This document shows positions 37,129 to 51,052 of a stretch of 64,000 bases of DNA, piece after piece. Location: contig OZ244960.1 of assembly GCA_965222605.1 (NCBI GenBank), positions 1 through 64,000 on the forward strand, given 5' to 3'. This DNA comes from Candidatus Latescibacterota bacterium (GTDB lineage: Bacteria > Latescibacterota > UBA2968). A model generated the notes under the pieces. The model did not search any database and was not told the origin of the DNA. It saw only the letters and a list, made by a program, of their open reading frames with translations. The position numbers and the translations under genes were made by a program. Positions within the stretch are counted from its first letter, which is position 1, and every line of letters begins with the position of its first letter.

Positions 37129-38022
37129 ATGGTCATTCGCATTTCAAACCTGACAAAAGTATATCGCCGTGGCGCAGTTCCCGCCTTAGACGATGTCACC
37201 TTGAGGATCCCACACGGAACATTTGGTTTGTTGGGGCCCAATGGTGCAGGTAAAACAACGCTGATTAAAATTTTATCAACTCAGATGGACGCATCGAGTG
37301 GTAGCGTGACCATGGATGAGTTCGATCTGGTAAAAGACCGCACAGAGATTCGCCGGCGTCTGGGATATTTGCCCCAGCATTTTGGGACCTATCCCCAATT
37401 GACGGCCTGGGAATTTCTCGATTATATGGCTGTTTTGGGCGGCATACACAATAGAAGAGTGCGTCTGAATCGCGTAGAGCAAGCTCTAAACGAAGTCGGT
37501 TTATACGAAGCGCGCAATCGGCGCTCGGGCACTTTTTCCGGTGGCATGATGCGCCGCCTTGGCATTGCACAGGCCATTCTGGCCGATCCAGAGTTTCTCA
37601 TTGTCGATGAACCCACCGTGGGACTTGACCCGGAAGAACGCATCCGATTCCGGAGTATTTTGGGACGCTTGAGTAGTGATCGCGCAATTTTGATCTCCAC
37701 GCATATAGTGGGCGATATTTCGAGCACCTGTGAAGATCTCGCGGTTTTGGATACAGGACAACTGATCTTTCGCGGTTCTCCCGCAGAACTCATTTCAAAA
37801 GCCGATGGAAAAACGTGGGAAGTACAGGTCAATGATGCTGGCTTTGAAATGCTGTCGCGGGTGTTTCGCGTGGTCACAGTAAATGTTGAAGGCGATCAGA
37901 TGCGTTTGCGTATGGTAGGAGATGGCGAGCCACCCGCTGATGCCGAAGCGATCGCACCTAACCTCGAAGATGCCTATGTCTATTTCGTCGGAGGCGATAC
38001 CACGGGCGAAATCGCAGCGTAA
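37129..38022 (+). CDS. ABC transporter ATP-binding protein (ABC-2/CcmA type)
   Basis: GPNGAGKT, FSGGM, IVDEPT, STH, C-terminal PNLEDAY. Confidence 0.95.
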   Translation: MVIRISNLTKVYRRGAVPALDDVTLRIPHGTFGLLGPNGAGKTTLIKILSTQMDASSGSVTMDEFDLVKDRTEIRRRLGYLPQHFGTYPQLTAWEFLDYMAVLGGIHNRRVRLNRVEQALNEVGLYEARNRRSGTFSGGMMRRLGIAQAILADPEFLIVDEPTVGLDPEERIRFRSILGRLSSDRAILISTHIVGDISSTCEDLAVLDTGQLIFRGSPAELISKADGKTWEVQVNDAGFEMLSRVFRVVTVNVEGDQMRLRMVGDGEPPADAEAIAPNLEDAYVYFVGGDTTGEIAA

Positions 38023-38034
38023 AGGATCAATACC

Positions 38035-48600: not shown

Positions 48601-50352
48601 CCTCTGGCACTCAAGTTTGGCGGCGATTACGAAATTTGGCCGCCCTTTGCGATTACACTACTGGGAGGGCTGGCAGTTTCAATGGTTTCTACTCTCGTAT
48701 TTATCCCCGTGGTGTACATGGGAATTGACCAGACCAAAGCCTGGCTGGCGGATATTGGCTGGTTCGGGATTGTATTGGGGACGGCAGCGGCAGCGGGATT
48801 GACGTATTGGGTTGACGATTATTACCAGAGTTTGTTCTGGACCTGTCTTCTGGCATTGCCGGCGTGGATGGTGTGTATGGGCGCGGTCTGGATTGTGCAG
48901 CGCATTTATCGCTCGCGTATGGCTTCTCGCGTTGAGATCGGCAGGGTCGATCATCTCGAAATTCGCAATCTGACAAAAATTTACGGCGCGCCGGGGCAGT
49001 TTAAGCGAGAATGGGATCGTTTTAAGCGGCGCAATCAGCGCCTTTCAGAGCGCGGACAGGTAATGGTAGATAAAAAGGCGATTCAGGACAGTTTGTGGTG
49101 GAAGTTGCCTCTTCTGGCTCTGCTACTTTATTTGGAAACCTATTTTGAACAGGGAACATGGATCTTTTTAACAGGGCTCGCCCTGTGGGGCCTCGTGCAT
49201 CATCTCGTGCTATGCACGGCTGCTTTGCGCGGTTTCCAGATTGAGAACCGATGGATATTGCAAATCGCCCGATTGATTTTGCCGCTGGTCTTTGTGGCCT
49301 TTGTTCATTGGCGTTTGGAACTTCTGTCTTTGACCATAGCCACTTGTGCAATTTACTTGCTCTATCGCATTATCGGATTTTTGGCAGATCGCGTTGCACG
49401 AGGCCGCGTTGATCCCGAACATATACCGGGGCGGTTAGGACCTGTTAAAGGTATTGTGTATCGCGGTGCTGCAGCCGTTCCCATCATTGGTGTTCCCCGC
49501 CCGCAATTCCAGGCCCTCGGCGGCGTGAGTCTCGATATTCCGCGCGGGATGTTTGGGCTTTTAGGCCCCAATGGCGCGGGCAAAACCACGCTGATGCGGA
49601 TTGTGTGTCGGGTTTTGTCGTCAAATTACGGATCAGTGCTCGCCAATGGCAAAACGCCGCTCACCCATCGGAATATGCAGGGGGTGATTGGATATTTGCC
49701 GCAGCACTTTGGCCTGTATTTGCACATGTCTGCGTATAATTATCTGGAATACCGCGCGCTTTTGGAGGGATTTAAGGACGGGGTAGCACGGCGCAAGCGC
49801 GTTCAGGAATGTCTGGAGCAGGTCAATCTGTGGGACAGGCGCGACGACCCGATTGGTTCGTTCTCTGGCGGTATGAAACAACGCGTGGGCATTGCACAAA
49901 CCCTGTTGCACTTACCACAGATTATTGTGGTGGATGAGCCAACAGCGGGATTGGATCCACTCGAGCGGATCCGGTTTAGAAATTTACTGGCGCGATTTAG
50001 CCAGGAAAAAATCATTATTTTTTCCACGCATATTGTCGAAGATATTGCGGGCAGTTGCAACCGATTGGCCGTGCTGAATCACGGCAAGGTGCTCTATACG
50101 GGAACCCCACTTGAAATGCGCGATTTGGCGCGCGATAAGGTGTGGGAAGCCCTGCTACCAGATCCGCGTTTTGAAGCGTTGGAACGCGACCTGGATATGA
50201 TTACACATGTGCGCGTGCCCGATGGGATTCGGGTGCGATTTCTCGCAACCGATCCCATCCCAGAAGCGCGTGTAGTTGATCCCACCCTCGAAGATGCATA
50301 CCTCTATCTTTTGCGACATGGCGATGAATACAAACAGGCTAACATGGCGTGA
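45628..50352 (+). CDS. RND permease fused to extra TM helices and a C-terminal ABC ATPase domain
   Basis: Full RND (GMLTDNGIVVMENI, RVRPILMT), then about 6 extra TMs, then GPNGAGKT / FSGGM / VVDEPT / STH / PTLEDAY, all in one 1574-aa frame. Confidence 0.92.
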   Translation: MTLAGIAVRRPVTTAMFFIGLAILGAISLDRLPVQIFPELVRPEVFITLNQQGYSPEQVERDLVMPVEREVGKLEGIEAYESFSRQNNGGVRISYAPNTDMKFALLQLESRITRLQPLLPERTRVNVQRFDSSDLSASVMQIHVLGEGDINWLREFAEEKIRPELEAVDGVVNAQVLGGQRTAIEIIVDPLMLQAHQLSMSDIRNRINAFNTRRQYLGRVYDGNQTYAVSIQGQFTDLVQIRRVVIKPELPLHLGDIAEIRYGLQERTDLQRINGKAAVGIRIQKDDEANLIDIAEILEDTIERINRDLVYENIQLVISQNQAEIMNEALNILKRAAVVGGLLGLFVLFLFLRNLRFVAVLLLAIPCSLLLTFNLMYMWNLSLNVLSMCGLALAIGMLTDNGIVVMENIFKHFEQGKSPKEAAKAGTDEVARAVVAATATTITVFLPVVFIQSDFQDILRELALSMTFPLLASLLVALTLVPALASKTLSLASRPPTETGTLIEMYTVCLKAGLRHRISVSLGIVGALVVTLIISFFFMLQQDIRREESRFTVYISMPEGTTIEALDAVVGEIESAVRGLKGVDRFTTSISEIQASINVELLPLSERPDQISVDLIKENLEESFADVQDAIVSYEAIARTGRGGGGGRGGGGRGIRGAGQASGGFNLEGGTPSEMAVIRGYDFTVLQMLADDLVYRLEELEEIDPNSVRADAERGASEVHVLPDEEVMFDRRLQVRQVLNAVSDANPRGARSNIAFLTPEGTEIPIDIRNVEDPEEEGEGIAGLRQTPILGAGGTYIPLVEVSHVRRDQGRSMILRTDQSRRVIVSYNFGDEILQSQPLLEASRAYVQDVVSEMVLPEGYSIEMIEAEEETIYYWMIGIAALLIFMILASLFESLSAPLIILCTLPTAIIGSCWALVLSGTGLTQQEGPMALLGFIILGGIAVNNGIVLIDAIETLRRRRGFRRERAVLAASRSRVRPILMTSATTILGVLPLALKFGGDYEIWPPFAITLLGGLAVSMVSTLVFIPVVYMGIDQTKAWLADIGWFGIVLGTAAAAGLTYWVDDYYQSLFWTCLLALPAWMVCMGAVWIVQRIYRSRMASRVEIGRVDHLEIRNLTKIYGAPGQFKREWDRFKRRNQRLSERGQVMVDKKAIQDSLWWKLPLLALLLYLETYFEQGTWIFLTGLALWGLVHHLVLCTAALRGFQIENRWILQIARLILPLVFVAFVHWRLELLSLTIATCAIYLLYRIIGFLADRVARGRVDPEHIPGRLGPVKGIVYRGAAAVPIIGVPRPQFQALGGVSLDIPRGMFGLLGPNGAGKTTLMRIVCRVLSSNYGSVLANGKTPLTHRNMQGVIGYLPQHFGLYLHMSAYNYLEYRALLEGFKDGVARRKRVQECLEQVNLWDRRDDPIGSFSGGMKQRVGIAQTLLHLPQIIVVDEPTAGLDPLERIRFRNLLARFSQEKIIIFSTHIVEDIAGSCNRLAVLNHGKVLYTGTPLEMRDLARDKVWEALLPDPRFEALERDLDMITHVRVPDGIRVRFLATDPIPEARVVDPTLEDAYLYLLRHGDEYKQANMA

Positions 50353-51052
50353 GTTGTTTTTCTTTGTCGGGAAATTGCACAGCCTGAGCATGAGAATCGT
50401 TTTTCACCGCAAAATGATTTTTATGTTCGGCGGAATTGTGGCGTATTACGCAATTTTGTACGCGATCGCAATCTGGCGTCCCGGTGAGGGGTTTTCAGTC
50501 GAGCAAGCCCTCCATGTATTGGTCGAAGTGCCAGGCACGGTGCTTGCGATCTATCTAACGATGGATCTGGTGTCCGGGGAGAGAGATAAGGATACGCTTG
50601 AAATTTTGTTCAGTACGGCTATCAGCCACTACGCGACATGGTCCGTGAGAATTGTGTCGATCTGTGCTGCGCTATTTGCCACGCTGATGGTGATGAGCAC
50701 GATTTCCTACTATTTTTTTGCAGAGTTTCCCTATCTCCTGGGCGGATTGAATGCCTGTATCCCTGCCTTTTTTATGGTGGGGGCCACATTTCTATTTTCG
50801 GTATTGTGTCGCAGTGGCAATGCGGCCGGCATGCTCGCTGTTGGGCTTTTGATTGCGGTTTTGCTTTCGACCGAGACGTTTGAGGATACATCGTATTACC
50901 TTTTTCTCAAACCATTTGACGCGCCTTCAGATTTAGATACCAGCTTGTGGATAAATCGCGTGGTGTTAAACCGCGCGGGCATTGCCATTCTGGGTATATT
51001 GTTCATTTTTCTGGCTCTGAGACGAATGATAGAGCGCGAAAAGCTGCTGTAA
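50324..51052 (+). CDS. ABC-2 type permease
   Basis: About 6 TMs; ERDKDTLEILFST coupling-helix motif; overlaps the upstream stop. Confidence 0.85.
   Translation: MNTNRLTWRELFFFVGKLHSLSMRIVFHRKMIFMFGGIVAYYAILYAIAIWRPGEGFSVEQALHVLVEVPGTVLAIYLTMDLVSGERDKDTLEILFSTAISHYATWSVRIVSICAALFATLMVMSTISYYFFAEFPYLLGGLNACIPAFFMVGATFLFSVLCRSGNAAGMLAVGLLIAVLLSTETFEDTSYYLFLKPFDAPSDLDTSLWINRVVLNRAGIAILGILFIFLALRRMIEREKLL

Follow-up and report, generated by a model that had tools for sequence, protein, structure and literature searches.

MdtABC-TolC of Escherichia coli combines two tandem paralogues of the resistance-nodulation-division (RND) class with a single membrane fusion protein (MFP) gene and an outer-membrane factor (OMF) encoded elsewhere, and its RND pair has the stoichiometry MdtB2C. 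RND heterotrimers such as MdtBC are rare, according to the passages of a Chem Rev review that bear on them (PMC8277102). The operon studied here has the same tandem RND genes, single MFP gene and distant OMF. It occupies positions 37129-51052 of a window of 64,000 nucleotides (nt), the whole stretch of DNA analysed, which comprises positions 1 to 64,000 of contig OZ244960.1 in the assembly GCA_965222605.1 of a Candidatus Latescibacterota bacterium. MdtBC has the DD/K relay residues and lacks an ATPase, ABC-2 permeases and extra transmembrane (TM) helices. In contrast, the operon in the window also encodes two ATP-binding cassette (ABC) ATPase domains and two ABC-2 type permeases, and its second RND protein continues through extra TM helices into one of the ATPases. 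This fusion of an RND permease (RND2) with a nucleotide-binding domain (NBD2) is real and conserved across several phyla.

Other described systems resemble the operon in part. NosDFY, which functions in copper delivery, has an ABC-2 permease with a large periplasmic partner, and NosF is among the solved NBDs closest to ours, including its C-terminal domain. However, its partner NosD is a separate β-helix protein, and the system has no RND protein, MFP or OMF. YbhGFSR and YhiI-RbbA-YhhJ of E. coli share with the window a DrrA-like ATPase, ABC-2 permeases and a HlyD-family adaptor (PMC7190983), but they lack an RND protein, an M1-fold domain and a membrane insertion in the ATPase. MacAB-TolC joins an ATPase, an MFP and an OMF in one envelope-spanning machine, and the MacB NBD is a structural match to ours (5nik_J, Z 22.3; also 5lj9). 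MacB is a type VII (FtsX-like) permease with four helices and an N-terminal NBD, as passages of PMC8277102 describe it, whereas the permeases in the window are of the ABC-2 type and an RND trimer would come in addition. In SecDF with SecYEG/SecA, again according to passages of that review, an RND-superfamily protein driven by the proton-motive force (pmf) works beside an ATP-driven machine on one substrate. Those partners associate non-covalently and translocate proteins; SecDF itself is a monomer, and no ABC fold is involved.

None of MdtABC, YbhGFSR, MacAB-TolC, NosDFY and SecDF has an RND-NBD fusion, TM helices within an NBD or a permease with an M1 fold. The earlier note on this DNA, made from the sequence alone, had named no characterised example. 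In line with this, our full-text literature searches (subscription papers, TCDB and supplements lay outside their scope) returned no description of an RND-ABC fusion, and the targeted passages of the tripartite-pump review PMC8277102 contain none. Hence, the fusion appears not to have been described before.

The RND2::NBD2 fusion protein

Gene 5 of the operon (45628-50352, plus strand) is a single frame of 1574 codons. Pfam assigns residues 5-1033 to ACR_tran (PF00873; E 1.4e-178) and residues 1299-1440 to ABC_tran (PF00005; E 4e-26), and no stop lies between them. The same combination is found elsewhere. Among the matches listed in a homologue search with residues 1030-1574, 120 out of 120 carried both PF00873 and PF00005; most were 1,486-1,646 aa long, and the named sources were Gemmatimonadota, Latescibacterota, Acidobacteriota, KSB1 and Calditrichota. 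Within the taxonomic order of the window, 41 genomes were compared. The fusion is present as a full-length single frame in 36 and is split over contig ends in two; the remaining three are without it. With one genome scanned per species, 80 loci were retained, and 28 of them have RND and NBD in one frame. Carriers include the cultured Draconibacterium mangrovi, Labilibacter sediminis, Marivirga tractuosa and Parabacteroides massiliensis, together with many metagenome-assembled genomes (MAGs) of Bacteroidales and one of Zixibacteria. Database entries name the protein 'efflux RND transporter permease' or 'ATP-binding cassette domain-containing protein', and these names conceal its two-part architecture.

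The fusion junction itself, at 48700-49600, is crossed unbroken by contigs from three other studies. Indels in these contigs are multiples of three bases when they fall within genes, and none lies inside 45628-50352. An assembly or gene-calling artefact, or a decaying pseudogene, would have nothing in its favour beyond an in-frame TAA flagged in two relatives. This TAA is a natural stop, only four codons earlier than that of the window. Since 36 of 41 relatives, cultured members of other phyla and the contigs of three studies all hold the intact fusion, with invariant catalytic motifs, this explanation, to which we give practically no credence, is already refuted.

Two records deviate from the common pattern. 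A complete cluster of OMF, MFP, RND1, fusion and permease 2 is filed under 'uncultured Eubacteriales bacterium' (L030), a Gram-positive order, where a binning or labelling error is more likely than a monoderm carrier. In a MAG labelled 'bacterium' (L031, 5800-19300), the order is rearranged to MFP, NBD1, permease-2-like, RND1, M1-like and fusion. There the match to the fusion falls into two parts, residues 1-1139 and 1273-1559, with 12 nt of DNA in common, which may reflect a frameshift or a form without the insertion described below.

The RND2 part (45628..48729; residues 1-1034) is a full-length AcrB-type RND protein. It is followed by two extra TM helices (48724..48930; residues ~1033-1101), which link TM12 of the RND part to the ATPase. 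The first strand of the ATPase, β1, with its A-loop tyrosine (LEIRNLTKIY, 48952..48984), comes next and is separated from the rest of the domain by a membrane insertion (48985..49506; residues 1120-1293) made of an amphipathic helix, four TM helices and a connecting helix. The NBD2 core, a C-terminal accessory domain and the stop complete the gene (49507..50352). All these elements lie on the plus strand. RND2 thus gains six TM helices, four of which are inserted in the ATPase fold between β1 and β2. The position of the insertion follows from the stand-alone ATPase NBD1, encoded by gene 1 of the operon, which has no such insertion in the alignment. Residues 3-12 of NBD1, its first strand, align to fusion residues 1110-1119, and residues 14-287 align after the insertion, so that ~171 residues separate β1 from β2 in NBD2. 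In 20 diverse fusions, L1115, T1116, K1117 and the A-loop tyrosine Y1119 are invariant. The earlier note had proposed a covalent RND-ATPase tether. The tether is there, in one frame, but the ATPase is not simply appended, since two linker TM helices precede it and a four-helix insertion interrupts it.

An AlphaFold model of fusion residues 1030-1574, built on 44 sequences, agrees with this arrangement (pLDDT 88.2, pTM 0.77). It places a two-helix hairpin after TM12, followed by β1, the amphipathic helix, four long helices, the connecting helix, the rest of the NBD and a C-terminal β-domain. Counted from residue 1030, where the modelled piece starts, the hairpin helices span residues 4-37 and 40-72 (pLDDT ~90), and those of the insertion 95-112, 120-143, 147-171, 179-201, 204-228 and 242-254. 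When solved NBDs are superposed, their own residue 1-3 aligns to model residue 77-80, the insertion is skipped and the alignment resumes after it. The best solved match is 4yer_B (Z 27.6), with 264 of 277 residues aligned at a root-mean-square deviation of 3.6 Å. TM_1403, NosF (7osf, 7o0y, 7qba) and the NBDs of ABCG and ABCA proteins have similar folds, TM_1403 being among the closest. NBD2 is not a contiguous NBD, as the insertion divides it; the fold itself is complete. From basic residues that flank the helices and the positive-inside rule, β1 and NBD2 would both be cytoplasmic.

The linker and insertion together form a six-helix module that is specific to this family: 47 hits were found among 1.84 billion representatives, and in every full-length hit the module sits at ~residue 1030-1295 of a protein of ~1,570 aa. 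Structure searches for a fold related to this module (Foldseek and wider) gave NBD matches only and barely covered model residues outside 75-538, so that the module is not put forward as a new fold. In the phylum of the window, the module occurs in 83 of 168 genomes (33 of 52 among the high-quality ones), and it is single-copy in nearly all carriers, the exceptions being matches split over contig breaks. Five shorter proteins with the module were inspected. Three are fragments without a Met start, one is an apparent chimera, and the last (P0158, 526 aa) begins with Met at the two-helix hairpin and continues through β1 and the four-helix insertion into the NBD. P0158 may be a natural split form of the fusion.

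Both NBDs have the complete set of ABC ATPase motifs, all but the Q-loop already named in the earlier note: Walker A GPNGAGKTT, the Q-loop YLPQ, the signature FSGGM, Walker B VDEPT with its catalytic glutamate, and the H-loop STHIV. These motifs are invariant in the 20 diverse fusions and likewise in 44 fusions, and both motors look active from their sequences. Pfam ABC_tran scores are 106.8 bits for NBD1 (PF00005, E 1.8e-30) and 92.7 bits for NBD2 against a cut-off of 25. Narrower models fit less well. TIGR01188 and TIGR03522, the best NCBIfam matches of NBD1, stay below cut-off, and so does the RbbA model NF033858, which matches both NBDs. NBD2 is 43% identical to residues 14-287 of NBD1. 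Moreover, it is the best paralogue of NBD1 in five out of five genomes, with 43-46% identity compared to 33-35% for the next ABC ATPase.

Permeases, RND pair and adaptor

The six genes lie on the plus strand, separated in the list of open reading frames (ORFs) by 11-12 nt or joined by short overlaps. Gene 1 (37129-38022) encodes NBD1, a stand-alone ATPase of 297 aa from the DrrA/GldA-like (ABC-2 type) group with a C-terminal accessory domain. It is followed by gene 2 (38035-41484), encoding permease 1 (1149 aa), an ABC-2 permease with an M1-aminopeptidase fold and a Golvesin_C domain. Gene 3 (41496-42569) encodes the periplasmic adaptor, or MFP (357 aa), and gene 4 (42566-45631) the AcrB-type RND permease RND1 (1021 aa). 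The fusion gene comes fifth, and gene 6 encodes permease 2, a small ABC-2 type permease. The longest ORF of gene 6 spans 50276-51052 from a TTG start; the likely start is an ATG at 50318 or 50324, and homologues are ~238 aa long. Genes 3 and 4 (42566/42569) and genes 4 and 5 (45628/45631) overlap by 4 nt each, and genes 5 and 6 by 29-35 nt if the ATG starts are used. The tight packing, the overlaps (the last one given as 50324-50352) and the list of parts had all been described in the earlier note, and the ORF coordinates and domain searches bear them out; that observation is correct at every checkable point.

The structure model of permease 1, built on 27 sequences (pLDDT 80.2, pTM 0.75), starts with an N-terminal helix and seven long helices, followed by a β-sandwich, a thermolysin-like helical domain, a second β-sandwich, Golvesin_C and a disordered tail. 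The membrane part (38035..38934) comprises the N-terminal interface helix and the seven long helices (model helices 23-299). The M1-aminopeptidase-fold domain, with the first β-sandwich and the thermolysin-like helical domain, occupies 38950..40509. The second β-sandwich and Golvesin_C follow at 40528..41325 (model strands 832-1097), and a Gly/Arg-rich tail, with pLDDT <50 at residues 1107-1149, extends to 41481; all are on the plus strand. The Pfam score for ABC2_membrane_5 (PF13346) is 18.8 bits against a cut-off of 25, while an orthologue (L012) exceeds the cut-off for ABC2_membrane_2 (29.6 versus 27.2 bits). Golvesin_C (PF25275) is recognised in both proteins, with 53.6 bits in the window and 62.6 bits in L012 against a cut-off of 31.6.

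The M1 fold of permease 1 is apparent from structure rather than from profiles, as Peptidase_M1 (PF01433) scores only 18.1 bits against a cut-off of 27.7. Foldseek aligns ~650 columns with the aminopeptidases IRAP, ERAP1/2, APN and tricorn factor F3 at E ~1e-18. The multi-domain fold is shared with these enzymes, but identity is 10-12%, and in permease 1 the domain is fused to an ABC-2 permease and Golvesin_C. Matches of residues 285-960 in the ESM Atlas (unnamed clusters at 0.93, M1 clusters at 0.88-0.91) served as leads only and are superseded by the Foldseek result. M1 metallo-aminopeptidases are characterised by an HExxH(18)E zinc site and a GxMEN exopeptidase motif. In the 27 homologues of permease 1, HExxH was found in none and GxMEN in none. 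Because both motifs are absent throughout, the domain is a catalytically dead pseudo-enzyme, a pseudo-peptidase. The 'M1-like' domain of the earlier note is therefore upheld as a fold, without the catalytic motifs. Since permease 1 has an odd number of helices, one beyond the six of an ABC-2 permease, the M1 and Golvesin_C domains would be extracytoplasmic, with a putative periplasmic position near the RND porter domains and the MFP.

Permease 2 (domain at 50318..51052, plus strand) likewise falls short of its Pfam family, with 21.1 bits for ABC2_membrane_2 (PF12679) against a cut-off of 27.2. It is weakly similar to the TM domain of permease 1 (E 2e-4). A complex prediction of this domain (residues 1-290) with permease 2 scored 0.10 against a mark of 0.32; made without controls, it carries no weight either way.

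Low-complexity runs rich in Gly and Arg, for example GRGGGGGRGGGGRG, occur in the presumed periplasmic parts of permease 1 (40144-40215 and 41380-41469, residues 704-727 and 1116-1145) and RND2 (47548-47589, residues 641-654). The family consensus also has a Gly-rich stretch at the RND2 position.

Both RND proteins are clear members of their family. RND1 scores 770.5 bits with PF00873 (E 3e-231) and RND2 596.2 bits against a cut-off of 28, and both cover profile positions 3-1020 of 1021. Their best solved relative is MdtB (9lyq_B), with E 1e-94 for RND1 and 6.5e-72 for RND2. They remain below the cut-off of the NCBIfam RND subfamily models, however (613 and 483 bits versus 1250). The AcrB proton relay, which consists of D407, D408, K940 and R971 (Asp-Asp in TM4, Lys in TM10, Arg in TM11), is altered in both, as neither has the TM10 lysine or the second TM4 aspartate of the HAE-1 type. 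Aligned to MdtB and an AdeB-like chain, RND2 has D400-N401, N944 and R977 at the relay sites, that is, DN in TM4 and NN in TM10; RND1 has DN in TM4 and ND in TM10. The same is seen across the genome: none of its 15 RND paralogues has the TM10 lysine, seven (including RND2) have DN/NN, three have DP/NN, and 10 have Asn-Asn at TM10. Because this is a genome-wide lineage trait, the changes at the relay say nothing for or against the use of pmf. We considered the possibility that RND2 has lost its proton relay and that ATP replaces pmf, and rejected it as a feature peculiar to the fusion; the lysine is missing from all 15 paralogues, and seven share DN/NN. More generally, the RND proteins of this lineage seem to use a proton-relay chemistry other than that of the AcrB paradigm.

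The MFP matches HlyD_D23 and is assigned to RND_mfp (TIGR01730) with 192.7 bits against a cut-off of 94.9. Its N-terminus ends in LVAC, which resembles a lipobox, and the protein is a probable lipoprotein. In a profile search, no match to OEP/TolC (PF02321) was found inside the window, in agreement with the earlier note. Elsewhere in the genome, seven ORFs exceed the OEP cut-off; the nearest, a weak match, is 748 kb away. In Bacteroidota and Zixibacteria, a gene of ~500 aa between permease 1 and the MFP encodes a TolC-family OMF. The OMF is part of the cluster at 25 of 31 fusion loci outside the genus of the window, and no in-cluster OMF was found throughout its taxonomic order (L091-L097). 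The full system would consist of seven genes, including the OMF, which the gene order of the window appears to have lost from the cluster.

Co-inheritance and genomic context

Gene order was compared by tblastn of the window proteins against fetched loci. The order NBD1, M1-permease (permease 1), OMF where present, MFP, RND1, RND2::NBD2 and permease 2 recurs in Bacteroidota and Zixibacteria. The earlier note had asked whether the six-gene order is conserved; it recurs across phyla, and the full form has the OMF as its seventh gene. The following counts refer to assessable fusion loci outside the genus of the window. Tandem RND paralogues with one MFP were present at all of them (RND1 29 out of 29, MFP 29 out of 29), and so were the M1-permease (27 out of 27) and permease 2, downstream of the fusion (28 out of 28). 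NBD1 was found at 24 out of 27, and at the three loci where it was missed the fetched flank stops at the start of the permease. Across phyla, the fusion is therefore accompanied by RND1, the MFP, NBD1 and both permeases.

In three species of the window's genus (G016, G018, G010; L094-L096), NBD1 is not in the cluster, and a copy with 82-84% identity lies 0.4-1.4 Mb away. Five genomes of the same taxonomic order without the fusion (94-100% complete) have NBD1 paralogues that are only 31-41% identical, and these five gave no match to the M1-permease. NBD1 and the M1-permease thus appear, from these comparisons, to be lost together with the fusion. The five genomes are related (three genera), so that the losses do not count as independent events. 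NBD1-like ATPases are also common as stand-alone genes. Four loci outside the cluster have an NBD with a partial or weak match to the permease after it: L033 and L051 are short contigs and probably cut-off clusters, and the matches at L080 and L090 are weak.

Upstream, the operon is preceded by an ORF of the FdhD/NarQ family (fdhD, 36163-36990). A terminator-like hairpin 3' of fdhD (37022..37049, plus strand; 12-bp stem and T tail) is a consensus match only and hints at the upstream boundary of the transcription unit. A promoter-like site just 5' of gene 1 (TTGGCA-16-TATACT, 37100..37127, plus strand) has 10 of 12 consensus matches. The promoter and terminator scans were near chance, with 23 sites found versus 16.1 and 19.9 expected. 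The promoter-like site is weak evidence, because 23 such sites were found against 16.1 expected. Downstream, a tetratricopeptide repeat (TPR) protein (TPR_21/YfgM-like; 51181-51843, plus strand) is possibly co-transcribed with the operon, and there is no strong plus-strand terminator between the two. The TPR gene is kept at loci of the same genus, and a 37% identical copy lies ~1.6 kb downstream in L092, of the same taxonomic order; none was seen at Bacteroidota fusion loci. A second hairpin (51888..51925, plus strand; 15-bp stem and T tail), also a consensus match only, likely marks the end of the transcription unit. Beyond it follow a divergent MerR-type gene and gcvT. Further upstream, positions 31827-35144 encode a protein of 1105 aa that has five Lamin Tail Domain repeats and ends in a FlgD_ig-like domain; its gene does not adjoin the operon in other lineages.

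A proposed composite exporter and competing explanations

What was observed directly is how the operon is built, that it is conserved, that its catalytic motifs are intact and that its parts are inherited together; the pairings, stoichiometry, topology and energy coupling are what we infer from this. The interpretation given in the earlier note is partly supported: its list of parts and its covalent tether hold, and its heterodimeric ABC transporter and heteromeric RND pump are consistent with the data. The explanation we prefer, with a probability of about 0.5, is that the operon encodes one composite tripartite exporter, in which an ABC-2 heterodimer is tethered to a mixed RND trimer. RND1 and RND2, as MdtABC-like tandem paralogues with a single MFP, would form a heterotrimer, and this would dock with the lipoprotein MFP and a TolC-like OMF, the latter encoded elsewhere in this genome. 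RND2 would run past TM12 via its two linker helices into NBD2, with the four-helix membrane insertion in the β1-β2 hairpin, and this tether and insertion would hold NBD2 at the membrane beside the RND trimer. There NBD2 may pair with NBD1, and permease 2 with permease 1, to give a single ABC-2 (type V) heterodimer that has two consensus ATP sites. Such a pairing is consistent with the presence of exactly two distinct NBDs and two distinct permeases, with NBD2 being the nearest paralogue of NBD1 in all five genomes, and with the retention of NBD1 after its relocation and the joint loss of all parts. The M1-fold pseudo-peptidase and Golvesin_C would form a periplasmic arm of permease 1 beside the RND porter domains and the MFP. 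ATP would drive the ABC-2 module either to move a substrate from the cytoplasm or inner membrane, or to move the pseudo-peptidase clamp, after which the pmf-driven RND trimer would expel the substrate via the MFP and the OMF. The probability given above covers both modes, provided that the pairing holds. As a guess from the domain types, the substrate might be an envelope or secreted amphiphile, or a molecule bearing peptides or glycans.

In its most far-reaching form, which we hold tentatively and rate somewhat below an even chance, this exporter would be a dual-energy transporter. The pmf-driven RND trimer and the ATP-driven ABC-2 heterodimer would be built into one particle through the 18-helix RND2-NBD2 chain, and ATP hydrolysis and proton flux would for that reason serve the same substrate path. 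The ABC module would lift the substrate from the cytoplasm or inner leaflet into the RND entry. Alternatively, the ATP-driven pseudo-peptidase arm would load or gate the conduit of RND, MFP and OMF.

Several points weigh against a composite exporter. The contacts between NBD1 and NBD2, permease 1 and permease 2, and RND1 and RND2 are ones that we infer, and ABC-2 transporters are often homodimers, which makes two separate homodimeric ABC units possible. A three-fold RND trimer would have to accommodate a two-fold ABC dimer. Both ABC-2 permeases of the window score below their Pfam cut-offs, and the lineage of the window has no OMF in the cluster. Contigs from an RNA library of an organism 90-99% similar span the junctions of genes 3/4 and 4/5 and the insertion/NBD region, but they are no proof of transcription, as such libraries can contain DNA and the sequences are only 90-99% alike.

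One alternative, which we regard as doubtful, is that nothing crosses the inner membrane via the ABC part and that this part acts as a mechanotransducer or gate, as in NosDFY, FtsEX or MacB/LolCDE. ATP hydrolysis by NBD1 and NBD2 would then open and close the M1-fold clamp and Golvesin_C of permease 1, and the clamp would capture a ligand from the periplasm or outer leaflet and pass it to the RND porter, or control the assembly or opening of the conduit of RND, MFP and OMF. Opening and closing around peptides is known for M1 enzymes, ERAP1 and IRAP among them. A complete M1 fold with no catalytic motif in any of the 27 homologues, within an extracytoplasmic module of ~850 residues, suits a binding clamp. 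TM_1403 and NosF of NosDFY have the folds nearest to that of the NBD with its C-terminal domain, and the membrane insertion of NBD2 and its tether to RND2 would suit the transmission of force. Yet the periplasmic location of the M1 domain is deduced from counting helices only, and permease 2 has no periplasmic domain; the present data are compatible with gating and with true transport.

It is also conceivable, though we consider it unlikely, that the operon encodes two or three ordinary pumps which share the MFP and the OMF, and that the fusion serves co-localisation or equal expression without any coupling. These pumps would be trimers of RND1 and/or RND2 next to one or two homodimeric ABC-2 exporters (NBD1/permease 1 and NBD2/permease 2) like YbhGFSR, which has its own MFP. 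The gene order, which places NBD1 by permease 1 and NBD2 by permease 2, would agree with such pumps, as would the complete, non-degenerate sites of both NBDs, which are like those of homodimers. NBD1-like ATPases are widespread as stand-alone genes, and ABC-2 systems with an MFP gene exist, YbhGFSR among them (PMC7190983). A covalent link with a family-specific, strictly conserved six-helix module is hard to explain by co-expression, however. Gains and losses involve all parts at once, the system occurs in single copy, and a homodimer of the fused NBD2 would need two neighbouring RND2 chains.

RND pumps and ABC transporters have been treated as separate energy classes of efflux, and a conserved fusion would show both in one device. 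It could place two energy sources in one export machine. A dual-energy transporter would be the first case in nature of a primary and a secondary active transporter joined covalently, and it would contain the first ABC ATPase with a fold threaded through the membrane. A conserved fusion would also offer a way to study the coupling of ATP-driven with proton-driven steps across the envelope. Two structural oddities likewise invite study: the membrane insertion within an ATPase fold, and the dead M1 peptidase carried by an ABC-2 permease. Because the system is single-copy, is found in 83 of 168 genomes of the phylum and occurs in cultured Bacteroidota, including a gut genus, it is accessible to experiments, and its task is probably physiological export and not incidental drug efflux.

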